This document shows, in pieces, positions 8,896-29,572 of a stretch of DNA of 64,000 nt. The DNA is from Bdellovibrionales bacterium (lineage in GTDB: Bacteria > Bdellovibrionota > Bdellovibrionia > Bdellovibrionales > DASUEL01), in contig JBFWOZ010000009.1 in NCBI GenBank assembly GCA_050250255.1, positions 16,895-80,894 on the forward strand. The letters run 5' to 3'. The notes under the pieces are model-generated. The model saw only the letters and a list, made by a program, of their open reading frames with translations. It made no database searches and was not told the DNA's origin. Made by a program: the position numbers and the translations under genes. Position 1 is the first letter of the stretch. Each line of letters begins with the position of its first letter.

Positions 8896-8963
8896 AATTT
8901 GACTACAAACCGATGAACCAGTGAAATTAAGTGCTTAACCAAACAAGTAAAAGGAAGGTCTCA

Positions 8964-9704
8964 ATGAACGACCATAAAGAACGCAAATTGGATAAACAGG
9001 AAGTAAAAAAACCTGATGCCTTCCTCACCCTTGCGAATGAATTCATTCGCATTATCACAAAATATCGCGGTCCAGTGATGGCAGGCATTGCGGTTGTACT
9101 TTTGGGTTCCGTGGCAATAGGCGTTTATATCTTTTATCAAGAATCGGTGGAACAAAAAGCTCAAGATGCTCTTTTTGCAGCACGAAAAAAATTGCGACCC
9201 GAACTATCGGCACCATTAGGCCAACAGCCAACCATCACCGCAAAGACACTGAACGAAGATTCTATTCAACAATTAGATTCTGTGATGAACCAATATCCTA
9301 AAAGCCGAGCGGCGATTGTTGCGGCCATTGAACTTTCTCAAGCGTATCTTGAAGAAAACAAGAGCACAGAGGCTGTAGGTGCAATTAAAAAAGTGACGCC
9401 TTCTCTCAACTCTCGTGATGTTCTCTACGGAATGTATCAATACCAACTAGGAAAAGCCCTTAGCAGTGCAGGCCAATGTCCAGAAGCACTCGCTCCTTTA
9501 AATGCCCTTGCGAATTCTTCTGGTGCCGCCACTATTTTTAAATCTGGCGCACTTTTGCAAACAGGCCTTTGTTACGAAGCGATGAAACAGCCAGAAAAAG
9601 CAATCGAAGTTTATGAACGCATTACAAAAGAATACACTGAAGGTGCTTCTTCTGAATCTGCTAAAAAATATCTTCGTCTATTAAAAAGAAATTCAAAGTC
9701 CTAA
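8964..9704 (+). CDS. Membrane-anchored TPR protein, YfgM-like
   Basis: Single N-terminal TM helix and TPR-like repeats, directly upstream of a BamB-like gene as in yfgM-bamB. ATG at 8964 follows AGGAAGG. Confidence 0.7.
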   Translation: MNDHKERKLDKQEVKKPDAFLTLANEFIRIITKYRGPVMAGIAVVLLGSVAIGVYIFYQESVEQKAQDALFAARKKLRPELSAPLGQQPTITAKTLNEDSIQQLDSVMNQYPKSRAAIVAAIELSQAYLEENKSTEAVGAIKKVTPSLNSRDVLYGMYQYQLGKALSSAGQCPEALAPLNALANSSGAATIFKSGALLQTGLCYEAMKQPEKAIEVYERITKEYTEGASSESAKKYLRLLKRNSKS

Positions 9705-9736
9705 TTTTTCTCAATGGTCCATGGAGGCTACTCAAG

Positions 9737-12234: not shown

Positions 12235-15156
12235 TTATTGAAGATCTAATTCTACGATTTTATCGTTACAAATAAAAACGGCCTGTGCGGGTGTCGTATC
12301 TGTTGCTCGTCGGAAGTTCTGCTCCTTACATCCATTTGAAACATAGATACGACTTTGCGCAGGTTTCACGAGTCCATTTTCGCCAGCCACTATAACCTCA
12401 ACGGCACCGTTGAGGTTATAGCTTGGTGCATAGGCAGCAAGTTTACCATCCACTTCGAGAGGAAAAAAGAATCCCTCATAGAGAAGTGAAGGAAGAAAAC
12501 TAAAACGGTTCGCGCTTAGCGCGTAGGTTTTTCCGGTGATTAGGTTTTTGTAAACCAGATCGTACTGTGAAAGAGCAAACACTTCTTTTTGCTGAGTTTC
12601 ATACTTCGCACCAATAATTTTAAGCAAAGAATCCAACTTATTAATGGGGCTAAGCACAAAATCTTCAGATAATATGTCTGAGTTACGCGTATGAATGAAA
12701 GTGATTTTTTGCTGCCCAGGAAGAGCTGGGCCCGCAAAAGACTTTACGGATGGATTTTGAGTAAATAAATCTGGAGCCGTTAAACCTTCTAATAGACGGA
12801 ACTGACTTAGACCAATTTTGACTTCGTTTTTCTTACCTTCAATTAAATCCGTAATCTTTTGAGTGACATAATAAAAATTTTCAAAGCTACTGCCTTTTAA
12901 ATACAACACCAGATCATCAAAGGTTGTAAGCGCTAGTGTGTCCTTAGGATCTGGAATAACTCTTAATCCTTCTTCAGCAAGATAATAAATATGAAAAGTT
13001 CGTTTCTTATCAGGGTTTGGATCACGTGGCGTAGGCCTAGGCATATCTAAAGGAGGAATTTCTCCCATACCTTTAAAGAAAATACGTTCAAAACCTTTAA
13101 GAAGAACCCATGAATATTGATCGGGGAGTGCCGTAATCTTTTGATCCAAGAGAACGTAGGATTTATCGCCAAATGCGACAAGTGGTTTTAAGAAACGATC
13201 ACGGTAATGAATTTCAGTACCGTTAAACGAATCGGTTCCACCACTACTTACAGTAAAGAAAAACACGAGATCCGCAATACCATCTCGGTTTAAATCTCTT
13301 TGCTCTACCTTAATTAGAGTGCTTTCAAAATCACCCTCTTTAACTGATTCGCCAACGCCCAAAGTTTCTTCCGTCACGACACGGTAGACGTTCATATCTC
13401 GGCGGAGCAATCGATAAGACCATTTTCTATTTTCTAATTTCTTTACTAGAAGAAAATCTGTTGATCCGTCGATAGAACGATACTCTTCACCTTCCTGAAG
13501 CGACACGCCTTGGATTTGGAAAACGCTGACACCTTTTTGTTCTGGCTGTAAAAGAGCCAAAGTTGGGACCATGATTTGCAATTGAAGTTTATAAGTCGAG
13601 ATCACTTTCCCGTCAGATAACACGTCTAATTTTAATTGATCTTCGCCGCTTTGTGACTCATTTACTGGGTATCTGAAGAGAATTGTTTTTTGAACACCCT
13701 TTGGCCAAAGATCAATTTTCTCTGTTGAAACCTGCAGTTCCGTACCATCGCTCGTTCGTGACGCGCGGAAAGAAATATTTTTTCCGTCAAGCCATAGATT
13801 TTTTAAAAGAACCTGACCCATAACGAAAGGATTTTTACGATCCCAGAGGAGACGAATATCTTCCTGTTTCACAGGATAAATGAGAGCTTGTGGTGTTAGT
13901 TGAAAACTTTTTTCCATGTCCAGATTACCAGACAACAGAGTTTTATTTTGCCATGTTTGGAACTGAGAAGCTCTTGGCTCACGAGCACCCAAAATAAGTC
14001 GCGCGAAGGCCTCTTGCGGCGAAATCTCTTGAGAGAGCATCATTGCGAGAGCTCCTGCTACAAACGGAGCAGCCATACTCGTACCGTTTTTATATTCATA
14101 ACCGTAGCGGATATAATATTTTTTAGGTCTAATCGTAGTAGGGTAAGTGCTTAAAATACTAAAACCTGGTGCCGCAATATCCGCGAGGCTACCAAAATTT
14201 GAAAAATGGCTAACAGCTCCATCAGGTCCATAAGAAGCGACGCAAATCACTTGAGCGTAAGCACATGGAAGAATTGGCTGATTCGCCGAATCGTTTCCAG
14301 CTGCGGAAACAATCATCACTCCATTTTTTTGAGCATAATCAAGGATCTCACGAATTGTTTTTTGGTTAGGGTCAATAATCGCAGGCCAGCCGATAGAGAT
14401 GTTAATGACCTTTGCGCCAGATCGAATGGCGTAAACAATCCCACGAGAAATAGCTGTGACAAAACCTCTTTGCTTTGAAAGCTCCGAGTCCAATGGTAAT
14501 CCATCACTCGTTTGTTCAAGAGTGCCCATGGGGCCCGTGGGAGTTTGACCCGAACCAATCACTTTTACAGGAAGAATCTTAACAAATCCCGTAGCAAGAC
14601 CTTTAGTCACACCACCGGCACCAGATGCAGAAATAATCCCGGCGATGTGAGTGCCGTGACCCGCTTGATCTTGAACGTTAAAACTACCACGAGTTCCATC
14701 ACCTTCTTTTGCTGTAAAATTAAATCCATTACAATCAAGAGGGTAACCATTCTTATCAGTGTCAACTACACCCGTTGTTTTTTCACATTGGATGATCTTT
14801 GGTTTATCTAATTTTGCCTCTTTTAAACAAGCAAGATGAGCTTTTAACGCCTCACACTCAGTAGGTTTAGTGGCGATGTAAGGAGCCAATTCTGGATGAT
14901 CTACTTGCACACCCGTATCGACAACAGCAACAATAATTTCCTTCTTTGGAGTGGCCGGAAGATTTCGTAAACGAAGATCTTCGCCCACCACCGCCGGGAA
15001 TTCAATGGTTTTTAAATCTTCTAAATCCACAGGTACAGAAGCACCTTGATTATTGAAGTACCACAGAGAGTCAGGTCCATTTGCATTTACGATGCTGATT
15101 CCACTTAGAATCACAATTAGGGAGGCCAGGAGAATTTTGATTTTTACATGTTTCAT
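12235..15156 (-). CDS. Secreted S8 (subtilisin-family) serine protease with long C-terminal extension
   Basis: Catalytic triad VAVVDTG / GHGTHIAG / GTSMAAP, oxyanion SAAGND, a signal peptide and an FG-GAP-like DLNRDGIADL motif. Confidence 0.92.
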   Translation of the reverse strand: MKHVKIKILLASLIVILSGISIVNANGPDSLWYFNNQGASVPVDLEDLKTIEFPAVVGEDLRLRNLPATPKKEIIVAVVDTGVQVDHPELAPYIATKPTECEALKAHLACLKEAKLDKPKIIQCEKTTGVVDTDKNGYPLDCNGFNFTAKEGDGTRGSFNVQDQAGHGTHIAGIISASGAGGVTKGLATGFVKILPVKVIGSGQTPTGPMGTLEQTSDGLPLDSELSKQRGFVTAISRGIVYAIRSGAKVINISIGWPAIIDPNQKTIREILDYAQKNGVMIVSAAGNDSANQPILPCAYAQVICVASYGPDGAVSHFSNFGSLADIAAPGFSILSTYPTTIRPKKYYIRYGYEYKNGTSMAAPFVAGALAMMLSQEISPQEAFARLILGAREPRASQFQTWQNKTLLSGNLDMEKSFQLTPQALIYPVKQEDIRLLWDRKNPFVMGQVLLKNLWLDGKNISFRASRTSDGTELQVSTEKIDLWPKGVQKTILFRYPVNESQSGEDQLKLDVLSDGKVISTYKLQLQIMVPTLALLQPEQKGVSVFQIQGVSLQEGEEYRSIDGSTDFLLVKKLENRKWSYRLLRRDMNVYRVVTEETLGVGESVKEGDFESTLIKVEQRDLNRDGIADLVFFFTVSSGGTDSFNGTEIHYRDRFLKPLVAFGDKSYVLLDQKITALPDQYSWVLLKGFERIFFKGMGEIPPLDMPRPTPRDPNPDKKRTFHIYYLAEEGLRVIPDPKDTLALTTFDDLVLYLKGSSFENFYYVTQKITDLIEGKKNEVKIGLSQFRLLEGLTAPDLFTQNPSVKSFAGPALPGQQKITFIHTRNSDILSEDFVLSPINKLDSLLKIIGAKYETQQKEVFALSQYDLVYKNLITGKTYALSANRFSFLPSLLYEGFFFPLEVDGKLAAYAPSYNLNGAVEVIVAGENGLVKPAQSRIYVSNGCKEQNFRRATDTTPAQAVFICNDKIVELDLQ

Positions 15157-15165
15157 AATTACTCC

Positions 15166-18100
15166 TTAAAATCCATCGCCTAAATAACGACCAAATAACT
15201 CGTAAGCGAGAATTTTATATTTTTTGACAAATTGTCCAAAGATCCCTTGTTCCAGTTCCGTGCTGTAGGTTCCTAAAGAATCAGAGAAGTACTCTTGTCC
15301 GCCTTCTAAATTCATGCGCTCATCATTTTTTCTAAAACCATTCACTCGAACCTGAAAGAAATAATTCTCATAACCTAAAATTTTTAGCACTTCGTAGAGT
15401 GGAAGCTGGCCTTGCAAAAGATCAACGATTTGATTTTGGATCTTAATAATATCTTTTTTCTCCACAGGAGGCGCATTCCTAAACTCAAGGAGTCTCTGCA
15501 TCCAAGGGAGAAGGCAAGGGTACTGCTGTTCAGCATTGATACTCGCCAAAAAACTTCTGTAGGCTGGATTCGCTAACGTGAATACCTTTGCGTTCTTACA
15601 TTGCGTTTCATAAGCATGTCGACCGCCGATTTCAATCAACCGAGACACGACTTGCGCCTCTTGTCCTCTTTGACCCGCCTTTAAAAACTCTCTGCGAATT
15701 TTTTCCAAGCCCGACGGATAAACAACTAACTGAGACTTGATTTCATAAAGCTGAAAATCCGTTACTTCGTTAAAAACTTCTTTTCTCATGAAAGGATGCC
15801 CAAGGTTGAGGCCCGATACACTTCTTTCAATAGAATCAATAATTTTATAAAAGTCTTTTTTCTTTAAGTTCCAACCGGTCCAGTAGTTTTCGCTAATGGT
15901 GACGGGGTGAAAACTTTGACCGTCTGTCACTTCCGCTTCTGTAGAAATCGTCGACCACTTGGCTTTACCTGCAACAGATGTAAGATTATTTCCACCGACT
16001 CCTCCTGGCCCAAACCCTGGGGCCGCAGCATTCACGATGTCGGAGAGAAGAGAGTAATAATTAACACCGCTTCGGCGTACTTTTCTGACAGAGAAAAGAT
16101 GCGCATCGTATTTTTCTTCTGTGACGTTTTCTTGTTCGCTTTTAGGTGCTCCATCTAAGGGACGAAATTTTAAAGAAACCGTATGTGCTTCATCGAGAGT
16201 ATCTTTCTTTAAAAAGAGAAAGGAGAAACGACTCGACCTTGAAGAGTAATCGTGACCTAATCGGTAGGGAAGGTAGTTACTCTCTAAAAGTTCTGGGCTA
16301 TTTCCGCGAATAAGACCTCTTAACGCTAAACCAATTTTCACATTTCGCTTGTAACCTTCAGAATCGAATTTTCCTGTTGGTTTTTCATCCCCTTCTTTAA
16401 AGTCGATGATGTAGGCACGAGTTTTAGCCACTGCTTTTTTCGGACTGCTTGCGAAGTTTATAATATCAATCCAGAATGAAAGACCAAAATCATGGCTTAC
16501 GGCACCAGAAGCAGCGTCTGTAAGATAGATGTGAAAACCGTCGGCCGTACGAGTGATATAGGTCTTTCGAAGCATAATGAGGTTTCCAGATACCCCATAA
16601 CGAGCTACAAATTCTTGTCCGAGCATGACTGGGATACCCAAAATAGCTGAGATGGGAATTGCAGCCGAGGCTCCGGCACCACCGCCGATAGAGTCAGTAA
16701 CTATGAAAGTTTCTCCCACTTTCATAGCTTTCGCGAAAGCATCAAAAGACTTTTCGTATTCTTCATCTTTTAAGTCCGCTTTAATCAAATCGCCAAGCCC
16801 CAACATAAAATTCAAAACATGAATGTCGTCGCGCGGTTCATTTTCCACCGCAGCTAAACTCGGAAGCGCTCGAACGTGAGCGAAGTCCCGCCGATAAAAT
16901 ACGTTCGCTGAAGCGGTAGGGAGAACATTTTCTTGAGATGTGTTTGTTAAAAAATAACCAAGAGACGCCTGGACAGCTAAAGAGTCGACGAGTTGAATCT
17001 TTGAATCCACACCATAATAAGTTCCAGAAGAAACGGAACGACCAGCTTGGATGCTTGCACCCGCCAGCATCCCGCCCCAGGTATCTAACGGAAAACTGCC
17101 TGGAGCTTCAGGATTTTCGATGTAGCGTTGAATGAACTCTTCAATATCTTTACCCCGACCAGCCGTGATGTCTTCGATCGTTTTCGCCGGAAATTTCTTT
17201 GTAATCGCCTCGAGAACTTTTGAAAGCCCAATACCTTGAGCCTCAAGTCTCATAAATTTCGCAATTTCACCAAGACGAATAGGCGACTCTACATCACCAA
17301 AGGTAAAACGCACGCTGATTCCAGGATAAAATTCTTGGGTCGCTTTACCATTCACTACTTTACCGACGTTCACTTGTGTTTCAAATGGCATTTGCGGAAA
17401 CTCTGCTCCAAGTCCTGCTAAATGAATGAGATGGTTACGTCTTGAAATAAGTTTTTCAAGAAAAAGAGCGGCAATATCTGATGGATAGGCACCAGCCGTT
17501 ACGATTTCTTCAAAATCTTTGCGAGTGAGTTTTGCAATTTTTCGAGCGACCCAACGAATGTCTTGGTAATCCGTATCTGTAAATTCATTGGCGAATACCT
17601 GGTTCATGACAAGAAGGTTATTCACGACCTTACCCATTTCCCAACCAAACATATTCACGTTTTCTGGCATATCCGCCAAAACAAAGAGAGTAATCAAAGC
17701 TCGTGTAGAGCGCTTGCTACCTACGAAACTTTTCTGCGCAACGCCCCAATGAAATTGCGGAACGGTGAGATCAGCAGGCTCCAAGATGACATCTTGCAAA
17801 GTAACTTCTGAGTTTTCAGTATTTTTGCGATCGGTCTCAGGAATCCAGCGTAGACCGTCACTGAGTGTATCTGCAGAAAGTTTGTTAATGAACCGTTGGC
17901 GACATTCTTCTTTCGTTGTGCCACAGAAATTCTTTTCTAATTTTACCTTAAGAAGCGGGTAGTGTTTAATTGCGCTTGTGTTGTAGCCCACTTTTCTCAT
18001 GAGAGCACTGCGCACTAAAGCGCCATGTCCCTGAGGGCTTACCCAAAGGATGAAGTTTCGTCCCTGACTATCGATGACCGTCATGCGCGAAACGCTCAGA

Positions 18101-18429
18101 AGGTCTCCGACCTTCACCGCACCTAAACTAGAATCGTACTCGACCTCAGATTTTTCTGGAAAAGATATTGCGACACGCTTAGGGTCTGTTGGCCAAAGGT
18201 TGTTAGGCTCAGGATCGAGTTGGCTAAGATCTACTTTGTTTTTTAAAAGTTCTGCTGCTTGATCTGAATCAATCGTTTTTCCTTGGTACTGAAGATCATT
18301 AGCGGGGCGCTTTGCGCGGTTGACGGGGATTGCGACCGAAGCAGCAAACACCCAATTTGGCAACGCAAGGATTAAAAACACTCCTGCAAGAAAACGAGTC
18401 AAAAATTTATTCGTCGAATTCTTCGCCAT
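15166..18429 (-). CDS. Large secreted hypothetical protein co-operonic with the S8 protease
   Basis: 1087 aa with a signal peptide; 9-nt gap to the S8 start containing an AGGAG RBS. Confidence 0.8.
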   Translation of the reverse strand: MAKNSTNKFLTRFLAGVFLILALPNWVFAASVAIPVNRAKRPANDLQYQGKTIDSDQAAELLKNKVDLSQLDPEPNNLWPTDPKRVAISFPEKSEVEYDSSLGAVKVGDLLSVSRMTVIDSQGRNFILWVSPQGHGALVRSALMRKVGYNTSAIKHYPLLKVKLEKNFCGTTKEECRQRFINKLSADTLSDGLRWIPETDRKNTENSEVTLQDVILEPADLTVPQFHWGVAQKSFVGSKRSTRALITLFVLADMPENVNMFGWEMGKVVNNLLVMNQVFANEFTDTDYQDIRWVARKIAKLTRKDFEEIVTAGAYPSDIAALFLEKLISRRNHLIHLAGLGAEFPQMPFETQVNVGKVVNGKATQEFYPGISVRFTFGDVESPIRLGEIAKFMRLEAQGIGLSKVLEAITKKFPAKTIEDITAGRGKDIEEFIQRYIENPEAPGSFPLDTWGGMLAGASIQAGRSVSSGTYYGVDSKIQLVDSLAVQASLGYFLTNTSQENVLPTASANVFYRRDFAHVRALPSLAAVENEPRDDIHVLNFMLGLGDLIKADLKDEEYEKSFDAFAKAMKVGETFIVTDSIGGGAGASAAIPISAILGIPVMLGQEFVARYGVSGNLIMLRKTYITRTADGFHIYLTDAASGAVSHDFGLSFWIDIINFASSPKKAVAKTRAYIIDFKEGDEKPTGKFDSEGYKRNVKIGLALRGLIRGNSPELLESNYLPYRLGHDYSSRSSRFSFLFLKKDTLDEAHTVSLKFRPLDGAPKSEQENVTEEKYDAHLFSVRKVRRSGVNYYSLLSDIVNAAAPGFGPGGVGGNNLTSVAGKAKWSTISTEAEVTDGQSFHPVTISENYWTGWNLKKKDFYKIIDSIERSVSGLNLGHPFMRKEVFNEVTDFQLYEIKSQLVVYPSGLEKIRREFLKAGQRGQEAQVVSRLIEIGGRHAYETQCKNAKVFTLANPAYRSFLASINAEQQYPCLLPWMQRLLEFRNAPPVEKKDIIKIQNQIVDLLQGQLPLYEVLKILGYENYFFQVRVNGFRKNDERMNLEGGQEYFSDSLGTYSTELEQGIFGQFVKKYKILAYELFGRYLGDGF

Positions 18430-18558: not shown

Positions 18559-18590
18559 AAAAAAAGAAAAGGCCTCTAGAAGAGACCTTT
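18559..18590 (-). terminator. Intrinsic terminator after lipoprotein copy 1
   Basis: Minus strand aaaggtctct-tct-agaggccttt followed by a T-rich run. Confidence 0.7.
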
Positions 18591-18616
18591 CAAAAGTGTT
18601 TAATATTTAAACAATA

Positions 18617-19636
18617 TTAGTTCATAAGGCTGCCGTAAAAGAAGCCGAGAACTTCTCTCATTGTCTCTGGACTTGTTCTCCAGTTTTGAGCAGCTTCACC
18701 AACAAGGGAATCCATCTCCTTCAAAGCAAGCTCCGTCTTTCCATCACGAGCCATGAGGGCTACGTCTTCAATACGACCGAGCTCAATTCCATAAACACGC
18801 TTAGAAAAAGCAGCCATGTCAGCATGCGTACGAGCGCGCTTAGAACCGATCTCTGACCAATCAACGAGTGAAGCAGCAGCTTGTTCGCTGACATCTGCAT
18901 CTAAAGAGAACTTTGCCTGAAGAACTTCAGAGATACCCTTTACTTGATCGGCACGTTGTTCAGCAATTGTGCCCATGACATCTTGACCTTGTTGTCCACC
19001 CGTAGCGCGAGCAAGGTTTAGTGCTGTTCCATTATAACCATATTCAACGCCAGAAGGGCTACGCATGAACATATCATTAAGCGTATTTACATTTCCTGGC
19101 TGCGTTGTTCTCCATCCGAAATTCCACCCACCTAATTGATTCTCGTAAAACGTTTTTGAAAGATGCCAATCTCTAACATTAATTTCTCGTCCATCTGGCG
19201 TTTTCACATAATGTTCGTAATTCGTAAATGTTTCGATGTATTCATGAACACGTTCCACAAAACCACCCTCACAAACGCTTTGCACAACTCTCGCGCAAGG
19301 ATCCCATTCATTTTGGATCTCAGTCTTTAATCTTGTGTCCTGAAAGGTTTTAAAACTAAAAGAAAAACCATTTAATTTAGAATAATGAGGATCTGTTTGA
19401 AGGTTGATTTTAGAACCGTCGTATTTAAAGTTACAACCCGGTCGAGGTTCACCCTCGCTACAGATCTGCGCCATAGAGTTAAACCAAGCATTTTTATTCA
19501 CATCGGGATTGTTACGAAGCACATCAAATGGATCTACTTTTGGAGCTGAACCGCCACCGCTGCCTCCTCCTCCGTTACAAGCTGACATTATTAATGCCAA
19601 GACGAAAACTAAAGTGCAATTAAAAACAAACTTCAT
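18617..19636 (-). CDS. Variable lipoprotein, tandem paralog copy 1
   Basis: Lipobox MSAC, a Gly-rich tether, the conserved NSMAQICSEGEPRPGCNFKYDGS block and a conserved C-terminal ~120 aa. Confidence 0.88.
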   Translation of the reverse strand: MKFVFNCTLVFVLALIMSACNGGGGSGGGSAPKVDPFDVLRNNPDVNKNAWFNSMAQICSEGEPRPGCNFKYDGSKINLQTDPHYSKLNGFSFSFKTFQDTRLKTEIQNEWDPCARVVQSVCEGGFVERVHEYIETFTNYEHYVKTPDGREINVRDWHLSKTFYENQLGGWNFGWRTTQPGNVNTLNDMFMRSPSGVEYGYNGTALNLARATGGQQGQDVMGTIAEQRADQVKGISEVLQAKFSLDADVSEQAAASLVDWSEIGSKRARTHADMAAFSKRVYGIELGRIEDVALMARDGKTELALKEMDSLVGEAAQNWRTSPETMREVLGFFYGSLMN

Positions 19637-19666
19637 TTATTACCCCCTAAAACAAGGTCTATGAGT

Positions 19667-19682
19667 TGCCCTACCTATGCCA
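19667..19682 (-). promoter_or_regulatory. sigma54-type promoter of copy 1
   Basis: Minus strand TGGCATAGGTAGGGCA (GG-N10-GC). The surrounding sequence is conserved with the region upstream of copy 4. Confidence 0.55.
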
Positions 19683-19785
19683 CTGGATACTACTTAATGA
19701 GAAGGAAAATCGTCGGTCCACCGTACGGTTCTGTGTACAGGTGACGTACACATCTGCGCGAACAAAGCTAAGAAAGAGTAAAGGT

Positions 19786-19814
19786 TGATCACAAGCAATA
19801 TACGCTTGTGATCA
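19786..19814. promoter_or_regulatory. 29-bp palindrome (operator/enhancer or terminator stem)
   Basis: tgatcacaagc-N7-gcttgtgatca, with the same architecture as 30575-30603. Confidence 0.5.
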
Positions 19815-19841
19815 GAAGATTTTGCAATGCTAAATAATTTT

Positions 19842-20795
19842 TTATTGGGCCAGATTGCCGTAGAAGTAGTTTAGAACTTCTCTCATGGTCTCAGGACTTG
19901 TTCTCCAGTTTTGAGCAGCCTCACCAACAAGGGAGTCCATTTCTTTTAAAGCAAGTTCTGTTTTTCCGTCACGAGCAAGAAGAGCCACATCTTCTATGCG
20001 ACCGAGCTCAATTCCATAAACACGCTTAGAAAAAGCAGCCATGTCGGCGTGCGTACGGGCGCGCTTAGAACCAATTTCAGACCAATCCACTAAAGAAGCG
20101 GCCGCTTGTTCACTGACATCTGCATCTAAAGAAAACTTCGCTTGAAGGACTTCAGAGATGCCTTTCACTTGATCGGCACGAACCTCAGCAATTGTACCCA
20201 TGACGTCTTGACCTTGCTGACCACCGGCTGTGCGAGCTGCATTGATCGCAACACCGTCATAACCGTACTTCATACCAGATGGGCTTGTGATAGTTACATC
20301 ACTCACATCAAAATGTACGCCGGTTGTTCTCCCAGCAAAAATCCAGCCGCCCAACTCTTTAGCGAAGTTTTGTTGTTGGTATCGAGTCCAATCTGCCATT
20401 GTATAACGACCACCGCCAGGAATATGAACGAAGTAACGATAGTTTGTATAGGTTTCGCTGGTGTCTGTACAGTAACCATCGAAATCACAGCTTTCATTCC
20501 AACGTGTGGCTGTGTAAGGTTCGCGTTCAATTAAAAATCCACCATTGAGCCGGTCAATGAAAGGGTCTTCGCCTTTTGTAACCTTTGAACCATCATATTT
20601 AAAATTACAACCTGGACGAGGTTCACCTTCGCTACAGATTTGTGCCATGGAGTTATACCAAGCATTTTTATTTACATCGGGACTATTACGGATCGTCGAA
20701 AAATAGTCTGGCGTTGAGCCTCCGCCACCACCATTACAAGCGGTCATTGCAAAAGCTGTTGCCGTCATTAAACTTATTCTTAGAAGTGTTTTCAT
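19842..20795 (-). CDS. Variable lipoprotein, tandem paralog copy 2
   Basis: Lipobox MTAC, the same conserved blocks as copy 1, and an AGAGGA RBS. Confidence 0.88.
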   Translation of the reverse strand: MKTLLRISLMTATAFAMTACNGGGGGSTPDYFSTIRNSPDVNKNAWYNSMAQICSEGEPRPGCNFKYDGSKVTKGEDPFIDRLNGGFLIEREPYTATRWNESCDFDGYCTDTSETYTNYRYFVHIPGGGRYTMADWTRYQQQNFAKELGGWIFAGRTTGVHFDVSDVTITSPSGMKYGYDGVAINAARTAGGQQGQDVMGTIAEVRADQVKGISEVLQAKFSLDADVSEQAAASLVDWSEIGSKRARTHADMAAFSKRVYGIELGRIEDVALLARDGKTELALKEMDSLVGEAAQNWRTSPETMREVLNYFYGNLAQ

Positions 20796-20815
20796 ATTTC
20801 CTCTTTGTTTTAGGC

Positions 20816-20843
20816 AAAAAAAGAGCCTCTAAAAGAGGCTCTT
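20816..20843 (-). terminator. Intrinsic terminator between copy 3 and copy 2
   Basis: Perfect stem aagagcctct/agaggctctt followed by a T-run on the minus strand. Confidence 0.8.
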
Positions 20844-20852
20844 GGTGTTTCG

Positions 20853-21869
20853 TTATTGCATTACGTTTCCATAAAAGAAGTTTAAAACTTCTCTCATCGT
20901 CTCTGGACTTGTTCTCCAGTTTTGAGCGGCTTCACCAACGAGGGAATCCATCTCTTTAAGAGCGAGTTCCATCTTTCCATCACGAGCCATGAGAGCTACG
21001 TCTTCAATACGTCCTAATTCAATTCCATAAACACGCTTAGAAAACGCGGCCATATCGGCGTGCGTACGAGCGCGCTTAGAACCAATCTCTGACCAATCAA
21101 CGAGTGAAGCAGCCGCTTGTTCGCTCACATCTGCATCTAAAGAGAACTTCGCTTGCAGAACTTCAGAGATACCTTTTACTTGGTCTGCACGCTGTTCAGC
21201 GATAGAACCCATGACGTCTTTACCTGTTGTTCCACCTGCTACTTGAGCGGCGTTTAAAGCATTTCCTGCGTAAGAGTACTTCACGCCAGTAGGGCTGAGG
21301 ATTGCGATATCATTGATATCTCCACTTGAACGATGTTCGAACGACCATCCATTCAATTTATCAGCATAAAAGCGAGAGTTAAGACCCCAATCTTTTACAT
21401 TATAAATACGATTGTCAGGAGTGTTCACATAAACCATGTAGTTTGTGAAAGTTTCTACATCTGTGTAATACTCTGTATCGTAGCCACCTACACAGTAACC
21501 ATCCCAATCAACATAATCACAGGAATCCCAAACTTGTCGAGAACGTTGAACCGTTTTTGAATCTGTATAAGCAACACGCGAGAATGTGAAACCATCTAAC
21601 TTAGAATAGTGTGGATCTGCCTGTAGAGTGATTCTTGAACCATCATAACGGAAGTTACAACCTGGACGAGGTTCACCTTCGCTACAGATTTGCGCCATAG
21701 AGTTAAACCATGCGTTTTTATTCACATCTGGATTGTTACGAAGTGCATCGAATGGATCCACTTTTGGAGGTGTACTTCCTCCGCCACCGCCGCCTTCACA
21801 AGCGACTGCGAGCATTGCTAGAGCAACGAACGAACTGACTCTTAAAACTTTTGAAAAACCGGACTTCAT
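20853..21869 (-). CDS. Variable lipoprotein, tandem paralog copy 3
   Basis: Lipobox AVAC, a Gly tether and the same conserved N- and C-terminal blocks. Confidence 0.88.
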   Translation of the reverse strand: MKSGFSKVLRVSSFVALAMLAVACEGGGGGGSTPPKVDPFDALRNNPDVNKNAWFNSMAQICSEGEPRPGCNFRYDGSRITLQADPHYSKLDGFTFSRVAYTDSKTVQRSRQVWDSCDYVDWDGYCVGGYDTEYYTDVETFTNYMVYVNTPDNRIYNVKDWGLNSRFYADKLNGWSFEHRSSGDINDIAILSPTGVKYSYAGNALNAAQVAGGTTGKDVMGSIAEQRADQVKGISEVLQAKFSLDADVSEQAAASLVDWSEIGSKRARTHADMAAFSKRVYGIELGRIEDVALMARDGKMELALKEMDSLVGEAAQNWRTSPETMREVLNFFYGNVMQ

Positions 21870-21915
21870 TTCATTCCCCCTTATAGGATTTATTTTTAGT
21901 TCCGTAGGCCCCTAG

Positions 21916-21931
21916 AGCAACCTACGTGCCA
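21916..21931 (-). promoter_or_regulatory. sigma54 (-24/-12) promoter of copy 3
   Basis: Minus strand TGGCACGTAGGTTGCT is an exact match to the consensus TGGCACG-N4-TTGCW. Confidence 0.8.
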
Positions 21932-22057
21932 TATCACTTTTTTTGTTTACTTGTTTAATGTGAGTTAAAGCTTTCTTTTCGGTGACAATTAGATACCAGA
22001 GCTCTAACGCATCGCTCTATGTCACCAGTTACAAAAGCTTGATCAGACTCACTAGCT

Positions 22058-22092
22058 AAAAAAAAAGCCTGAGAATTTCTCAGGCTTTTTTT
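22058..22092 (-). terminator. Bidirectional intrinsic terminator after copy 4
   Basis: A-run, gcctgaga-att-tctcaggc, then a T-run. Confidence 0.85.
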
Positions 22093-22112
22093 GTAAGTTG
22101 TGTTTACTATTT

Positions 22113-23114
22113 TTACTTCGCAAGATTCCCGTAAAAGAAGTTTAGAACTTCTCTCATGGTCTCAGGACTTGTTCTCCAGTTTTGAGCAGCTTCACCAACA
22201 AGTGAATCCATCTCTTTCAAAGCAAGCTCTGTTTTTCCATCACGAGCAAGAAGAGCGACGTCTTCGATACGTCCTAATTCAATTCCATAAACACGCTTAG
22301 AAAAAGCAGCCATGTCAGCATGCGTACGAGCGCGCTTAGAACCGATCTCTGACCAATCAACGAGTGAAGCAGCAGCTTGTTCGCTGACATCTGCATCTAA
22401 AGAGAACTTTGCCTGAAGAACTTCAGAGATACCCTTTACTTGATCGGCACGTTGTTCAGCAACCGTGCCCATGACGTCTTTACCATTAGTGCTACCAACC
22501 GCTTGAGCTGCGTTGAGAGCAGAACCGTCGTAGGCATACTTCACGCCAGATGGGCTCAAAATAGTAATATCGTTCACATCAGTGAACGATCCCGCCAAAC
22601 GATGTTGGAAACTCCAGCCGTTGAGTGAGTAGCTTCCGCTCACAAGACCCCAGTCCTTTACGTTGAATTGTCTTCCGTCTGGAGTGTTCACAAACACATT
22701 ATAATTCGTGAAGGTTTCTGTGTAAGCATATTCACGTCTCACGTAACCAGCCTGGCAAACGCCGTCTATGTCACGATATGCACAATGATCCCATTCTTCA
22801 GTTTCGCCAACACGGTAACGCTTATCGGTGAATGACGAACGTACGAATGTAAAGCCATTCAAAGTTGTATAAGCAGGATCTTCACCTAAAGAGATTTTTG
22901 ATCCGTCATATTTAAAGTTACAGCCAGGACGCGCTGGTTCACCTTCGCTACACATCTGCGCCATAGAATTGTAAAATGCAGTTTTGTTTGCATCTGGATT
23001 ATTTCGGAGAGCTGCAAAATAATCAGGAGTGGAACTACCGCCACCACCGCCGTTACAAGCTGTCATCACAAACGCTAACATGAGAAACAAAGAACAATTA
23101 AAAACAGATTTCAT
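22113..23114 (-). CDS. Variable lipoprotein, tandem paralog copy 4
   Basis: Lipobox MTAC and the same conserved blocks; 184 bp are identical to copy 1. Confidence 0.88.
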   Translation of the reverse strand: MKSVFNCSLFLMLAFVMTACNGGGGGSSTPDYFAALRNNPDANKTAFYNSMAQMCSEGEPARPGCNFKYDGSKISLGEDPAYTTLNGFTFVRSSFTDKRYRVGETEEWDHCAYRDIDGVCQAGYVRREYAYTETFTNYNVFVNTPDGRQFNVKDWGLVSGSYSLNGWSFQHRLAGSFTDVNDITILSPSGVKYAYDGSALNAAQAVGSTNGKDVMGTVAEQRADQVKGISEVLQAKFSLDADVSEQAAASLVDWSEIGSKRARTHADMAAFSKRVYGIELGRIEDVALLARDGKTELALKEMDSLVGEAAQNWRTSPETMREVLNFFYGNLAK

Positions 23115-23148: not shown

Positions 23149-23164
23149 TGCCAAGCTTATGCCA
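23149..23164 (-). promoter_or_regulatory. sigma54-type promoter of copy 4
   Basis: Minus strand TGGCATAAGCTTGGCA (GG-N10-GC). Confidence 0.6.
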
Positions 23165-23192: not shown

Positions 23193-24554
23193 TTAGGGAA
23201 TGCGCTGCATTATCTTCGAGATCTGTTCATCCTGCTGTTCAGTGAGGATTTTAAACGTGAGTTCATTTAAAACGGTCTTCCAGACATTATGAAACTCCTG
23301 CAGGTGTTTGGGATTTACGGCCTGATACACGCGTTCATCTTTAAGAATTAAAACCGTGAGCTGCGCTAGGCGATCTAAAAGACTTATTTCTTTTGTAAAT
23401 TGGACTTTGTCACCAAAGGAGAGACGAAGTTCCGATATGGCCGGTACAAGTAACTCAAGAGAAGGAGTTTTGTCTTGTTTATCCTCAGAAATGACCAAAA
23501 ATTGATCTATCACGCAGCTGGAACAAGACCCCAGGATTCTCAGCAAAGAAAGAATATTCGGAGTCGAAAGGCCTTCTACGGAGCGAATGAGGATTTGACG
23601 AGCTCCACTGGCTTTCACGATGCGACCAAGTTCTAGTTGGGTACTCATGAGTTTTTCAAGATCTGTCACGCGCGCTATAACATAAGCGTTTTGTTCCTCG
23701 CTTGAAGAAATTGCGGTGCTACTACCACTTCCATATATATCTTGAGACGGTTTTGGCCACTGTATGCGACCATTATGAGGGTTACCTGCGATGAGCTCAT
23801 CTGGTTTTGTCGCTTTACCATTATGCGGATTACCAGCGATTTGGGTCACAGCTTTTTGATCAGCCATCGAAATGGTTAAACCAGAAAAATGGAAAGTGTT
23901 GGTCGCACGATCATAGCTATAAGAACGGGTAGGCATACCTTTACGTGCATTCTCAATAAAACGAAGAATGGTTGAAGCAGGAATAGAAAGAGCCGTACCT
24001 TCTTTGGATTTTTGAGAAACCATTCCTACGACTTTATCTCCAGCAAGAACGACAGAACCACTCAATGAACCACGAAGGGGTAATTCTACTCCTTGAACAT
24101 TCTGAATTTCCTGGGCTCGGGGAACGCCGGGCACCATTAATTTCCCGCTGGCAAGATCCATGAATCGCCCCGCGATAGTTGTTAATCCTTTAGATTGAAA
24201 ATCCCAACCCATGATGGAAACAAGTTGCATCTGTTTTAAAGGCGTCAGGGTTTCAAAAGAACAGGCCGAAAAATTCGCGTTTGGCACTTCAAGAAGAGCC
24301 AAATCCGTATGAAAATCACGCGCCATAATTTGGGCAGAAAGCTGAGAAACTTTTTCCTTTTCTACAACAAGACGAGTGGGCTGGAGCGGCAAAGTGTGTT
24401 CATTAACAACTAACTCCGTTGCAGAAATCGCAAAGGCTGTTCCGGAATACTTTATTCCGTCCTCCTCAGAGGTGACTCGCGCGAGAGTACAAGGAGCGTT
24501 CGCCAGCAAGGGTTGAGCGACGCTGAAAAGTAAAAAACTCATAAGCATTTTCAT
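23193..24554 (-). CDS. Secreted trypsin-like (S1) serine protease with C-terminal extension
   Basis: Signal peptide; GTAFAI…VVNEH (His), DLALL (Asp) and GSLSGS (Ser), followed by VVGMV. Confidence 0.7.
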   Translation of the reverse strand: MKMLMSFLLFSVAQPLLANAPCTLARVTSEEDGIKYSGTAFAISATELVVNEHTLPLQPTRLVVEKEKVSQLSAQIMARDFHTDLALLEVPNANFSACSFETLTPLKQMQLVSIMGWDFQSKGLTTIAGRFMDLASGKLMVPGVPRAQEIQNVQGVELPLRGSLSGSVVLAGDKVVGMVSQKSKEGTALSIPASTILRFIENARKGMPTRSYSYDRATNTFHFSGLTISMADQKAVTQIAGNPHNGKATKPDELIAGNPHNGRIQWPKPSQDIYGSGSSTAISSSEEQNAYVIARVTDLEKLMSTQLELGRIVKASGARQILIRSVEGLSTPNILSLLRILGSCSSCVIDQFLVISEDKQDKTPSLELLVPAISELRLSFGDKVQFTKEISLLDRLAQLTVLILKDERVYQAVNPKHLQEFHNVWKTVLNELTFKILTEQQDEQISKIMQRIP

Positions 24555-24555
24555 T

Positions 24556-26847
24556 TTAAGCTCCTTTATTCACAACGTAACCGGCGCTACGACCAGCCCC
24601 GATAGGGGAGAGAAGACGCATTTCTACAAGCAAAGTTAATTCACGAACCGCGGTTCGTGGGCTTAGACCTAAATTTCTCACTACGTCCTGACGACGAAGA
24701 ATTCGCTGAGGTCCAGAAACAAGCGAAAGTATATCTCTTTGTCTTTTGGTTAATGGTTCGGTATCTGTCCAAGCATTTCGAATCTTTGCTTTTTGCAAAG
24801 GCGACACACGATATTTTCCTATATGTAATTCAATCATCACCGACTTACGAAGTCGTCGAATGTGGCTATAGATAATAGGATCATCTTGAAAAGGGCTGTA
24901 TTCCCGACCCCATATCAATTGGATAAGTTGTTCTTTAGAAAGACCACTCAGCCCACTCTCAACTAAATGTTTTAAGATTAAAAATAAAATGGATTGGCTT
25001 TTGATATCAAGCTTCGTTCCTTTTAGAAGAACGACCCCATCCATTTCATCAACAAGTAAACCTTCAGAATATTCCTGCTCATTTTTTGAAAGCTTTGAAC
25101 GTTTTAAAATCCAATGAGTCGAAGTGAGATCTTCTCCAAAACAAAGCGTAAAAAAAGCGGATAAATCTTCTTTAACGGAAGGAGAGCATTTGTTCATTGT
25201 GTGAAGCCATTCCACTTCGTGATGTGAGTCTTGATAGACGAGTCCTCCACGCGCAAGACACGCCAGAAGCATGAGCCCTTGAGCTTGAGCCACCATTAAG
25301 GCCTCATTAAAACATCTCATCATTTTTTCGCGATCTCCCATTGAGAACGCATAAAAACCACGACCTAAACTCTTTAAACATTCTGACCATGGTGAAGAAG
25401 GAAAAGACTCCATTTTTTGAAGAATGGCGTGTACCACTGACCAATTTTTCTGTGCTACCGCAGAAATCATTTGCACTTCAAGAATAGAAAGTTTGTCTGC
25501 CGGCACATGAGGAGACGAGACAAAATCCATCCACTCACTAAGACCAATTCTTTTTTGTAGAACAATAGGGACCCGTGCGACGAGATCTGAAACATCGGTT
25601 TTTAATTGGCCCATGGAACGGGCCTGAAAAGCCACTCGTCGTAATTTCCAGGCGAGTAAGTAAAGTGACGACTGAGCATCTGCTCTTGGGTCCTGAACAT
25701 TTTCTTTACCCGCATATTCCATACCTTGTAAACCAAAGCCGGCTTCAAAAATTTCTAAAGCAGTCTGGGCTTGAGAAAATTGAGTGAAACCCTTCTCTGC
25801 AATATGTCTGCGCGACATACCTAGGGAAATTTGCGCTTGAAACACTTGTCCCAACTCTAAGTGCGCTTGACCTTGAGCTTGTCGAGCGAGCACTTTTTGC
25901 ACTTCGCTTAAGTTTTGGAAGGTAAATACTTCTTCTGTTTTTGCTAAAGCACGGAGTGGCTGATTTTGTACGATTTCTCTTTGCGCTTCAAAAAGCGAAA
26001 GACTTTTTGAAAGGCAGGGAAGTTGAAAGGTCTTGAGTTTTTGATTCACCATCTTGAGCCAAAATTGTACGTCTTTTTCTTGATCTAAAACATGGTGAGT
26101 CGCCGCGAGATTAAAAGCGGCAATCGCACTGGAAGCTGTTTCTTCTTCTAAATCGAAAATCTCAAAAGCTTGTCGATAAAGTGCAAGGGCTTTTGAATAA
26201 TGAGCTAAATTAAAGTAGGGGGAACCGCAAATTAAAAGAATTTGACCACGATCCCAAGAAGACAACTGAGAGATGTTTTGAAGAATATAACTTCTTTCAA
26301 TCAATTCAACCGCTTGTTCTTGGTCACCTGTAATCCGCAAATTGAGAATTTCAGCCGCTAAAATCTTAGGATCGGTCTTTGCATTCATGACCTGTCGAAG
26401 ACTCTCGCAGTCACGTTTTAAATAAAGTTGTGCTTGAAATGTGGCGAGCGATTTTAACTCTTTAAACTTGAGAACTAATTCCCATTGGTTGGACTCGAGA
26501 GCTCGTTTCACGATCCATTCCTTCAATACCAACGGAACCTGATTAGAGCCGAGTTGCTGATCCATCAGTTGTCCTACGAAACTCCACTCTTTTTCTCCAA
26601 ACCCAGAAAAGGATTCTTGTACCGCTTGCAGACATTCGATGAGTCTTCTTTGAAGCGAAATTTCAAACTTCTTTTCTTCTGATATTGAGAGTCTGCCAAA
26701 CTGATTTTCCTGACTCATGTTAAACAAAAGCCAGTCGGACATTTCTTTTTGCAGTTCCACTCCAAAAAGCAAGTTGGCACCTACGCCTCCATATTTGTGG
26801 AGGCAGTAGAGAAATTCTTTTTTCTGGTGCGCCAATTTGAGGCTCAT
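24556..26847 (-). CDS. TPR-repeat transcriptional regulator with OmpR-type winged helix plus a second C-terminal HTH
   Basis: TPR-like helices (YSKALALYRQAFEIF); SKEQLIQLIWG…IYSHIRRLRK (wHTH); RQDVVRNLGLSPRTAVRELTLLVE…GAGRSAGY (DeoR/Fic-like HTH). No signal peptide. Confidence 0.75.
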   Translation of the reverse strand: MSLKLAHQKKEFLYCLHKYGGVGANLLFGVELQKEMSDWLLFNMSQENQFGRLSISEEKKFEISLQRRLIECLQAVQESFSGFGEKEWSFVGQLMDQQLGSNQVPLVLKEWIVKRALESNQWELVLKFKELKSLATFQAQLYLKRDCESLRQVMNAKTDPKILAAEILNLRITGDQEQAVELIERSYILQNISQLSSWDRGQILLICGSPYFNLAHYSKALALYRQAFEIFDLEEETASSAIAAFNLAATHHVLDQEKDVQFWLKMVNQKLKTFQLPCLSKSLSLFEAQREIVQNQPLRALAKTEEVFTFQNLSEVQKVLARQAQGQAHLELGQVFQAQISLGMSRRHIAEKGFTQFSQAQTALEIFEAGFGLQGMEYAGKENVQDPRADAQSSLYLLAWKLRRVAFQARSMGQLKTDVSDLVARVPIVLQKRIGLSEWMDFVSSPHVPADKLSILEVQMISAVAQKNWSVVHAILQKMESFPSSPWSECLKSLGRGFYAFSMGDREKMMRCFNEALMVAQAQGLMLLACLARGGLVYQDSHHEVEWLHTMNKCSPSVKEDLSAFFTLCFGEDLTSTHWILKRSKLSKNEQEYSEGLLVDEMDGVVLLKGTKLDIKSQSILFLILKHLVESGLSGLSKEQLIQLIWGREYSPFQDDPIIYSHIRRLRKSVMIELHIGKYRVSPLQKAKIRNAWTDTEPLTKRQRDILSLVSGPQRILRRQDVVRNLGLSPRTAVRELTLLVEMRLLSPIGAGRSAGYVVNKGA

Positions 26848-26860
26848 GAATTAAAATACC

Positions 26861-28207
26861 TTATGGTTTTTTCACAGGGACAATTGAAGTTGCTGGCTTC
26901 GCTGTAGGTTTTGAGCTTTCGGGAGCAGACTTGGTTTCAGGTGTGTAACGTAGGCCTTCCTCAAACTGCACGCCTGTAAGGTCATTTAAAGAACCCACTC
27001 CCATCAAAAGTAATTTTACTTTTGTTTGGACGTTGTTTTCAGTGTCTTTCCCAGCATTAATGAGAGAGTACAGCTCATTCTGCCAAGCTTGAGAGTTCCA
27101 ATCATTCGCAAAGGCCTGAACTTCCTTAGCCACTGACGCATCTCCACCAGCGCGACCTTTTACCGCTGCTTTCAAAGCCATCGCTTTAAAACGAAGTTGT
27201 GTATAAATCGTGCGGTTCATATTGGAATCCAATGCGTCTTTATTGATAAGAAGCTCCCTCAGCGTGGTCTCCAGTACAACACCAATCGCCGACATCGCTT
27301 TCGAAGGGGCTCCTGCAAGTCCATTCGTCCATCCATAGCTCATGCGTAGTTGGCTCACAAGTTCACGAATATTTTCAATAATGAGTTGAGTCGTAGCAAC
27401 ATCATCATATTCACTAAAAATTTCTTCCATCACTGTACCCATGGCCACAACCATACGGGCGGACTCTTGAACGTTTTGGTGTGTTACAGGCACCGTGATG
27501 ACTTCCTTTTGTAAAACAAATGCATCCATCGCAGATTGGATAGAAGCCTTAAGTCGATCCATGTGTGGTCGGTCGGAACGTCTTAAGGAACCAGTCAGTT
27601 GGTTGAGTTGATTGAGCGTGTTCTGATAGATCGTATAAAGGCCTTGACCGGCATGACTTAGCCCAAGCGCGAGACTCTTGGGACTACCAAGAAACGCGAG
27701 GGAAACAATAGAAAGGTATGGATTTCCATTCCTCGATAGCGTCTCCTGACAATCATATGCAAACTTTGTTACCGGTTTTTCAAATTCAAACTTGGCAGGG
27801 CCAATCGCATTCCAATGTACTACTGGAAAAGTATTAAGATCTACACTAAACGTATCTGGGCGACTTTGCCTGTAAGATCGCACCAATACAGCCGTGATTG
27901 GTAAAGTAGATTCCACGCACACACAAGTTGCTAGAGCGGCTTGACGAACAGCGGTGGAACTCGTCCCGGCCAAACCAATAGGAGCCGAATAAGTTAAGTC
28001 TCCTTTCACTACAGCATTACCAGTAATTTTAACCACACCAATACCAAAATTAATTATGCATTGTTTTTTTCCTTCACACGCACTGACAACATCGAGAACG
28101 ATTTCGCCTTCTGGACTGTGAACAATCCTCTCAACTTTGCCTAGTTGTGCTTGTGAAAAAATTGGTAGCATTGAAAAAATAAATGTAAGTAGAGAAAAAA
28201 TCTTCAT
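26861..28207 (-). CDS. Secreted protein, paralog A (variable N-half, conserved helical C-half)
   Basis: Signal peptide (…FSQA). The C-terminal ~230 aa align closely with 28218-29513. Confidence 0.85.
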   Translation of the reverse strand: MKIFSLLTFIFSMLPIFSQAQLGKVERIVHSPEGEIVLDVVSACEGKKQCIINFGIGVVKITGNAVVKGDLTYSAPIGLAGTSSTAVRQAALATCVCVESTLPITAVLVRSYRQSRPDTFSVDLNTFPVVHWNAIGPAKFEFEKPVTKFAYDCQETLSRNGNPYLSIVSLAFLGSPKSLALGLSHAGQGLYTIYQNTLNQLNQLTGSLRRSDRPHMDRLKASIQSAMDAFVLQKEVITVPVTHQNVQESARMVVAMGTVMEEIFSEYDDVATTQLIIENIRELVSQLRMSYGWTNGLAGAPSKAMSAIGVVLETTLRELLINKDALDSNMNRTIYTQLRFKAMALKAAVKGRAGGDASVAKEVQAFANDWNSQAWQNELYSLINAGKDTENNVQTKVKLLLMGVGSLNDLTGVQFEEGLRYTPETKSAPESSKPTAKPATSIVPVKKP

Positions 28208-29513: not shown

Positions 29514-29556
29514 ACAAAACTCCTCAAAAACATTTTCGTGGCGCGATTCTGTAGTA

Positions 29557-29572
29557 ACCAATAATCGTGCCA
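29557..29572 (-). promoter_or_regulatory. sigma54-like promoter of the paralogB-paralogA-regulator-protease operon
   Basis: Minus strand TGGCACGATTATTGGT: a perfect -24 box, with TTGG instead of TTGC at -12. Confidence 0.5.

Follow-up and report, generated by a model that had tools for sequence, protein, structure and literature searches.

Four tandem lipoprotein genes with divergent middles and a constant C-terminal domain, beside recurrent predicted-barrel and subtilase genes in a Bdellovibrionales bacterium

The window analyzed here is a 64,000-nucleotide stretch of the genome of a Bdellovibrionales bacterium, and its central feature is a tandem array of four genes for predicted lipoproteins, followed downstream by a gene for a large predicted barrel protein (P0165) and a gene for a protease of the S8 family (subtilase). 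The larger finding is this neighboring module and not the array itself: the barrel and subtilase genes recur beside lipoprotein homologues in many relatives, and the three together make up a widespread and apparently undescribed gene set. A first-pass annotation of the array, which overlooked this link, had likened it to the antigenic-variation loci of Borrelia and Mycoplasma. The genes are:

12235-15156, minus strand: S8 subtilase of 973 aa (PF00082), D/H/S motifs intact, C-terminal part of ~550 aa without Pfam match
15166-18429, minus strand: P0165, 1087 aa, with signal peptide, Fam20C/PI4K-like N-domain and predicted outer-membrane-type beta-barrel (residues about 441-1036; from a model)
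18617-19636, minus strand: lipoprotein copy 1 (P0001, 339 aa; open reading frame (ORF) call)
19842-20795, minus strand: lipoprotein copy 2 (P0002, 317 aa; shorter hairpin; ORF call)
20853-21869, minus strand: lipoprotein copy 3 (P0003, 338 aa; the copy modeled; ORF call)
22113-23114, minus strand: lipoprotein copy 4 (P0004, 333 aa; ORF call)

All four lipoprotein ORFs carry a lipobox-like cysteine at residue 20-24 (by pattern match) and a glycine tether, and the constant-variable-constant layout reported by the first-pass annotation stands at these positions and lengths. Pairwise amino-acid identity among the four is 80-95% in the N block (copy-1 residues 35-75), 39-57% in the middle (residues 76-215) and 94-97% over the last 120 residues, which had correctly been described as near-identical. 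The middle, which had been termed hypervariable, is indeed divergent but not hypervariable in the manner of complementarity-determining regions: W111, C114, C122, ETxTNY, W157, GW and SPxGxxY are invariant within it in the alignment of the four copies. Least conserved is the distal hairpin (copy-3 residues 104-140), with a mean identity of 28% against 97% for residues 218-334. No internal peptide repeats were seen in the four-copy alignment; switch sequences and a recombinase were not specifically searched for. In the 3.09-Mb genome a fifth copy was found neither by tblastn nor by a hidden Markov model of the C-terminal domain (C-domain). Pfam, NCBIfam and PDB sequence searches returned no family for the lipoproteins, and an Atlas search gave only an unnamed cluster (0.77, a lead only).

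To characterize the divergence of the copies, codons were compared by region in all six copy pairs. In the middle, the proportion of synonymous differences (pS) is 0.71-0.88, that is, saturated, and the proportion of nonsynonymous differences (pN) is 0.32-0.41; in the three pairs with finite dS the ratio dN/dS is 0.16-0.26. This comparison by region gives no sign of diversifying selection in the middle. In the C-domain dN is 0.027-0.050, dS 0.25-1.08 and dN/dS 0.03-0.12, with dS below that of the rest of the gene. Copies 1 and 4 share an identical tract, attributed to gene conversion:

18783-18966, minus strand: 184-nt tract identical in copies 1 and 4, copy-1 side
22279-22462, minus strand: 184-nt tract identical in copies 1 and 4, copy-4 side

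The tract spans 32 consecutive matches among 87 polymorphic sites, a run reached in none of 20,000 permutations (p<5e-5); for the other five pairs p ranges from 0.015 to 0.63. Across the six pairs, identical tracts of at least 30 nt are confined to the C-domain, with none in the middle. In run X1, possibly the source sample, the 184-nt tract is collapsed to a single 176-nt contig at about double depth and is therefore present in the reads. By this comparison the C-domains are kept alike by purifying selection together with gene conversion.

The middles have a different history. Two proteins from a 3.6-kb contig of another organism, P0005 and P0006, were compared with the copies as protein (without dS). 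Identity of the copy-3 middle to P0005 is 71%, against 43-57% to its own paralogs; the copy-4 middle is 60% identical to P0006, and its hairpin part 57%, against 41-45% to paralogs. C-domain identity, on the other hand, is 94-97% within the window and 89-92% to the proteins of the other organism. Trees of the seven long-form proteins are mostly unresolved, and a pairing of P0003 with P0005 is neither shown nor rejected, but a single clade of the four middles in the window is rejected by the approximately unbiased (AU) test (p=0.022), while the C-region tree joins the four copies, weakly (60/21 support). By the AU result, the history of the middles predates the split from the other organism; cross-species retention of the variable regions had been named in the first-pass annotation as evidence that would count against its own reading. 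The middles are, to judge from these alignments, old and retained across organisms.

These results bear directly on the explanation first offered for the array, a fast-diversifying repertoire of antigenic-variation or receptor cassettes, whose middle either evolves under diversifying selection or is reshuffled between constant ends. The layout itself, the fact that recombination between copies does occur and the predicted projection of the divergent part (below) are what such a repertoire would lead one to expect. Set against this are the saturated middle with dN well below dS, the placement of the conversion tract in the constant part, the retention of middles across organisms, the lack of silent cassettes and the single copy found in most other genomes (below). 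Nor do runs X1-X3 contain sequence variants where they cover the array, at low and patchy depth, from one study and as contigs, which drop rare variants; X2 and X3, from that same study, have a depth of 2-3, with cover in 12 and 13 of 30 bins, among them middles of copies 1 and 3. G001, the single genome from the same family (77% complete), yielded no match, and a metagenome scan for close relatives found none. We regard this explanation as largely refuted and scarcely credible.

Upstream sequences point the same way. Pattern and consensus matching gave the following signals:

19667-19682, minus strand: sigma-54-type motif (-24/-12, GG-N10-GC) before copy 1 (pattern match)
21916-21931, minus strand: sigma-54-type motif before copy 3 (pattern match)
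23149-23164, minus strand: sigma-54-type motif before copy 4 (pattern match)
20821-20843, minus strand: terminator-like hairpin between copies 3 and 2 (consensus match only)
18567-18591, minus strand: terminator-like hairpin after copy 1 (consensus match only)

The GG-N10-GC motif, which follows the sigma-54 consensus, lies 46-62 bp upstream of copies 1, 3 and 4; copy 2, which begins 58 bp behind copy 3, has no promoter motif of its own. Because the pattern was drawn up with the window sites already in view, the window count (3 against 0.67 expected) is biased. A fairer test is the comparison in relatives, where the motif stands upstream of 16 of 59 distinct lipoprotein genes and of 2 of 579 other ORFs at the same loci, these relatives being kin and not independent. 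In this genome, which encodes sigma-54, the motif precedes 24 of 2,110 ORFs. Because the ORFs are intact and three have sigma-54-type motifs of their own, the copies are probably separately expressed genes and not silent cassettes. Four intact copies, three with their own promoter motifs, are, together with the AU result, further evidence against antigenic variation.

Profile searches found 80 and 91 proteins of the lipoprotein family (two of the 91, P0120 and P0160, are repeat proteins and were dropped as chance matches), and the 42 named loci are nearly all titled as Bdellovibrionota groups. The family plan is a lipobox, a glycine tether, a variable part and a helical C-domain of ~116 aa. 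The lipobox cysteine is a nearly invariant column in alignments of 121 and of 30 rows, on which the predicted lipoprotein status rests. Among 145 rows the part preceding the C-domain varies from 19 to 229 aa and is rich in tyrosine and glycine (12.5% Tyr, 15% Gly). From the cysteine-pair motif to the C-domain there are about 52 residues in the common form and 116-133 in the clade of the window; aligned in this way, the middle delimited by the first-pass annotation is largely a clade-specific insertion. In P0129, P0119, P0121, P0133, P0143 and P0139 the part before the C-domain consists of W/Y-x-x-G repeats, of Gly/Asn/Asp low-complexity sequence, or of only ~20 residues.

Copy 3 (residues 33-338) was modeled with AlphaFold2 from 121 alignment rows, with a predicted local distance difference test score (pLDDT) of 90 and a predicted template-modeling score (pTM) of 0.57. 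The model comprises a two-stranded hairpin (26 + 24 residues) with the cysteine pair at its tip, a low-confidence linker and the helical C-domain:

21423-21587, minus strand: copy 3 residues 95-149, predicted long beta-hairpin with Cys-pair tip, most divergent part (AlphaFold2 strands E63-88/E94-117; the model starts at residue 33)
20856-21218, minus strand: copy 3 residues 218-338, conserved helical C-domain, from the (G/S)(R/K)D motif (model and alignment)

The most divergent part is thus predicted to be a long projecting hairpin, from the 7 of 121 rows that cover it. The proposal of the first-pass annotation, that the array is a repertoire of binding specificities on a shared scaffold, survives in part: the lipoproteins do share a scaffold whose most divergent stretch is, in the model, a projecting hairpin, but the mechanism of antigenic variation falls away. 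It is plausible that the four modeled hairpins present different binding surfaces. At the start of the C-domain, after a linker with pLDDT below 50, 115 of 160 rows have an Arg or Lys before the conserved Asp.

No Foldseek match to the lipoprotein was found at E<=0.001; the best PDB match (VIA, Z 4.9), like the others, spans the helical part only. Absence of a fold match does not show a new fold. Another idea is that the lipoproteins are subunits of a polymer or coat, co-assembling through the C-domain into rings or fibers in the manner of type-V pilins, which are made as lipoprotein precursors, matured by a protease and anchored in the membrane; mixed assemblies would then keep the C-domains alike. 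The near-identity of C-domains in this clade, the aromatic-rich variable parts and the combination of low pTM with high pLDDT are in keeping with such subunits, and a ribbon made of two strands, each about 25 residues long, might well be stabler if paired with its neighbors. Among the fold matches, weak and confined to the helical part, none is to a pilin or other polymer, and we consider this reading unlikely.

The protein P0165 was modeled from 19 sequences (pLDDT 75, pTM 0.66), with about 15 strands. Residues 441-1036 match OmpG (Z 11.8, rmsd 5.7, 217 residues aligned), followed by CymA (Z 11.6), FhaC (11.1), TamA (11.0), PelB (11.0) and PgaA (10.9), with many barrels in the range Z 10-12; residues 64-339 match Fam20C (Z 8.3, rmsd 4.1, 217 aligned) and also PI4K II kinases. 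Outer-membrane proteins tend to end in an aromatic residue, as do 13 of 18 full-length homologues of P0165. In the kinase-like N-domain D253 is kept in 14 of 19 rows, and these rows have no Asp column in the strand taken as the DFG position (register assigned by eye); the domain is probably a pseudokinase. No Pfam or NCBIfam match and no PDB sequence family was obtained for P0165 or its homologues, and an Atlas search placed it in an unnamed cluster (0.97) of hypothetical proteins from Bdellovibrionota. The kinase-like N-domain alone is shared by other ORFs of about 520-1,280 aa, sometimes in tandem pairs (G000:C9:1-3828, outside the window, and many relatives), which appear to form a wider uncharacterized family.

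The model admits another reading, in which the large protein is a secreted pore-former directed at prey membranes and activated by the subtilase, the lipoprotein being its chaperone or immunity factor. Long short-tipped hairpins that project from helical parts in the model and are only partly amphipathic would suit it, as would weak Foldseek rows that include MACPF pores (E 0.2-0.3); the top structural matches, however, are all single-chain outer-membrane barrels, and the aromatic last residue likewise counts against secretion as a free pore.

The subtilase matches PF00082 with 131.7 bits (cut-off 21.8), and a Peptidase_S8 match was present in all 14 of the linked proteases given. To measure linkage, profiles were searched in 151 genomes of the order at E<=0.001, giving raw matches in 76 for the large protein and 85 for the lipoprotein; 4 genomes with short matches to a paralogous N-domain and 14 in which weak matches extended no further than signal peptide and tether were excluded. 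After filtering, the barrel gene is present in 72 of 151 genomes, the lipoprotein gene in 71 and both in 71, and the two lie no more than 10 kb apart in 69 of these 71 (on separate contigs in the other two), counts to be read with the reservation that the profiles were partly built from the same genomes and that kin are not independent. Among the 69, the order is downstream in 39, upstream in 27 and on opposite strands in 3. In a sample of 101 genomes from the phylum the large protein is present in 36, and three families beyond the order are represented among these.

Copy number sets this genome apart. One lipoprotein gene is present in 58 of the 71 genomes and tandem pairs in 6 others; the four-gene array is found only here, alongside one barrel gene and one such subtilase gene. 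The highest number seen is in G115, with six lipoprotein homologues over five contigs (C249, C182, C128, C34, C203). In seven loci (L029, L030, L035, L037, L041, L047, L050) a lipoprotein gene stands without barrel or subtilase gene, always with a sigma-54 motif, between a CinA-like gene and DedA-, CHASE2- or CRP-like genes (labels by eye). That the four genes are stable paralogs within a conserved three-gene set is highly probable and far firmer than any mechanism; taken alone, the array is a modest and ordinary expansion of paralogs, one domain of which evolves in concert.

Counterparts of the set can be placed in the model predator Bdellovibrio bacteriovorus HD100. In two relatives (L058, L060) the order is barrel, S8, lipoprotein, (in L060) rhomboid, hypothetical genes, HD protein and DUF1338/HGLS, and HD100 has Bd2429, Bd2428, Bd2427, the rhomboid Bd2426 and, further on, the HD protein Bd2421 and the DUF1338 protein Bd2420 (PMC2797640, PMC12546842). 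The S8 proteins of the relatives have 1032-1034 aa and 114.4-115.5 kDa, against a published 1033 aa and 114.9 kDa in HD100; their lipoproteins have 301-319 aa, against 301 aa and 32.1 kDa. By gene order and size alone, with the published sequences unaligned, lipoprotein, S8 and barrel thus map to Bd2427, Bd2428 and Bd2429. Bd2430 was rejected as the lipoprotein (342 aa, pI 9.3, wrong side). At L060:7800-8618 the rhomboid protease gene abuts the lipoprotein gene, and in L058 it is not beside it. HD100 has a single lipoprotein at this place, with a different N-part and without the long hairpin; here there are four, with hairpin.

On prey entry Bd2427 is reported to rise 14.4/11.0-fold (about 5-fold in host-independent growth), Bd2428 2.6/2.3-fold and Bd2429 2.3/2.0-fold (PMC2797640); protein log2 fold changes are +1.54 at 3 h, +0.91 at 2 h and +0.74 at 1 h, respectively (PMC12546842). 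A rise that follows prey entry speaks against an ancestral role in recognizing prey at first contact. Culture supernatant has been reported to contain Bd2428 (PMC3898049). According to a citation in PMC2797640, Bd2428 is also one of the genes hit in Tudor's predation-deficient mutants made with a transposon, which would favor a pore-former activated by the subtilase. That report contrasts with transposon sequencing (Tn-seq) in strain 109J, mapped by gene order, where fitness values of 1.6-1.8 for Bd2427, 1.6-1.9 for Bd2428 and 1.1-1.4 for Bd2429 lie far from the hit cut-off of 0.1 and indicate no predation defect (PMC6561027). The value for Bd2429, and its absence from the proteome files of PMC11003981 that list Bd2427 and Bd2428 with 2 peptides each, leave the pore-former very unlikely.

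Expression in prey would also suit a fixed feeding complex, with the lipoprotein as a substrate-binding lid on the barrel, the subtilase cutting prey or environmental protein, the barrel importing the pieces and the four copies binding different substrates, a mode of action like that of SusCD/RagAB or of the dentilisin complex. The HD100 counterparts increase once prey has been entered and are highest while the predator grows inside it, the missing Tn-seq defect fits a redundant feeding role, the barrel matches include the solute channels OmpG and CymA, and the lipoprotein-barrel linkage is as such a complex would have it. We nevertheless find it rather doubtful: the P0165 model contains neither a plug domain nor a barrel of TonB-receptor size, and in some family members no more than 19-40 residues precede the C-domain, too few for a binding lid.

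The reading we prefer, at a probability of roughly 0.4, is that lipoprotein, barrel and subtilase form a dedicated lipoprotein export and display unit, the cargo of which has expanded here to four. The lipid-anchored protein would reach the outer membrane; its constant C-domain would be the docking part, bound by the periplasmic kinase-like domain of the barrel protein; the divergent hairpin would be the tip displayed on the cell surface; and the subtilase may act as maturase by cleaving at the (G/S)(R/K)-D junction. If a single barrel and a single protease served all four cargoes, that would account for C-domains that are 94-97% alike while the tips drift; across the family, too, the C-domain is constant while the N-part ranges from 19 to 229 aa. 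Linkage, the four-to-one copy ratio, the barrel model, the Arg/Lys-Asp motif, the pattern of selection and conversion, the promoter motifs and the presence of Bd2428 in supernatant all favor it. A bolder version is possible but less probable: an undescribed secretion and display system of the Bdellovibrionota, in which a barrel with a periplasmic pseudokinase receptor would export lipoproteins bearing a helical C-terminal export domain and a coupled subtilase would clip that domain, so that almost any aromatic-rich passenger of 19-229 aa could be displayed, here as four separately promoted disulfide-tipped hairpins.

Several observations weigh against export and display. Neither partner gene is present in the fetched DNA of 26 of the 42 named loci (flanks of up to 8 kb, several of them the full 8 kb). 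The proposed cut site lacks Arg/Lys in 45 of 160 rows, including Bdellovibrio-type members. Tandem pairs at four other loci have C-domains 60-72% alike; near-identity is therefore not required for sharing a barrel, and constancy as extreme as here sets this clade apart. The hairpin prediction draws on few rows, as noted, and the barrel model is moderate, with rmsd of 4.6-7.8 for the barrel matches. P0165 has no Foldseek match at E<=0.001, although its top rows are barrels nonetheless, and a clear hydrophobic face is present only in strands about 2-8 of 15 (about half amphipathic), such that a closed membrane barrel is not certain. In HD100, moreover, the three proteins peak at different times.

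On balance the array likely holds old, slowly diverged versions of one module member, surface proteins with different tips, and not a fast-shuffling disguise system. The array itself is ordinary; its value lies in flagging an apparently undescribed envelope module next door, which joins three uncharacterized, predation-cycle-induced genes (Bd2427-Bd2429, by order and size) and offers a concrete, testable mechanism in a genetically tractable predator. To our knowledge, how predatory bacteria move lipoproteins and proteases across their own outer membrane inside prey is poorly known. In the full-text literature, covering few subscription papers and few supplements, we found only passing mentions of Bd2428 among Bd2427-Bd2430 and no description of a barrel joined to a kinase-like domain; the main texts of PMC12034629 and PMC13689555 contain no mention of Bd242x.

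The surroundings are otherwise varied. Directly upstream of the array (23193-26847, minus strand) are genes for a trypsin-like protease and for a TPR-like protein of 763 aa that has a winged-helix domain; these genes are not conserved beside homologues. A second tandem pair follows (26861-28207 and 28218-29561, minus strand), encoding secreted-looking proteins without Pfam match that share 57% identity over their whole length; the first ~190 aa are divergent and the helical C-terminal halves far more similar, and the genome has no further copy. On the opposite strand, just past the subtilase (8931-10873, plus), are genes for a TPR protein and a BamB-like beta-propeller.

Comparison with known systems places the set beside several without merging it into any. 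Borrelia vls draws on silent promoterless cassettes that feed one expression site, with recombination and diversifying selection in the variable region and variants in the population; Mycoplasma vlp/vsp genes vary in tandem-repeat number and switch phase through homopolymers or inversion. The array resembles both in its tandem lipoprotein-type genes, its constant and variable parts and its recombination within the locus. The likeness in mechanism claimed at first pass is not borne out: four full ORFs with signal peptides take the place of silent cassettes, no repeat-length variation was seen in the alignment, the variable part shows old purifying divergence and conversion acts on the constant part. 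Dentilisin of Treponema denticola is a lipoprotein-protease complex whose subtilase is encoded with lipoproteins, and SusCD/RagAB pairs a lipoprotein with an outer-membrane barrel, both recalling the present set; here, however, the subtilase scores only 64 bits against NF033595 (cut-off 300), and neither in size nor in family matches does the barrel correspond to a TonB-dependent receptor.

Two-partner secretion and Omp85 proteins (FhaC, TamA) share the barrel shape (Z about 11) and the combination of a conserved cargo domain with a variable passenger, and FHA is matured by a subtilase. Omp85/TpsB proteins carry one or more POTRA domains before a 16-stranded barrel; P0165 has no POTRA domain by Pfam or in the model, its cargo would be a small lipoprotein, and barrel Z-scores do not separate FhaC and TamA from porins. 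In Slam, or type 11 secretion, an outer-membrane barrel with a periplasmic N-domain adjoins lipoprotein genes in 185 of 353 cases, and consists of a TPR N-domain and a DUF560 14-stranded barrel with TbpB-like cargo (PMC5449769). Neither the TPR N-domain nor DUF560 was found in P0165 or its homologues by Pfam or NCBIfam; its model has instead an N-domain resembling kinases and a barrel interrupted by large helical inserts, and the set adds cargo with a helical C-domain and a tightly coupled subtilase. What the two have in common is a barrel (predicted in P0165) with a periplasmic N-domain encoded beside lipoprotein genes, for which dedicated surface display is proposed.

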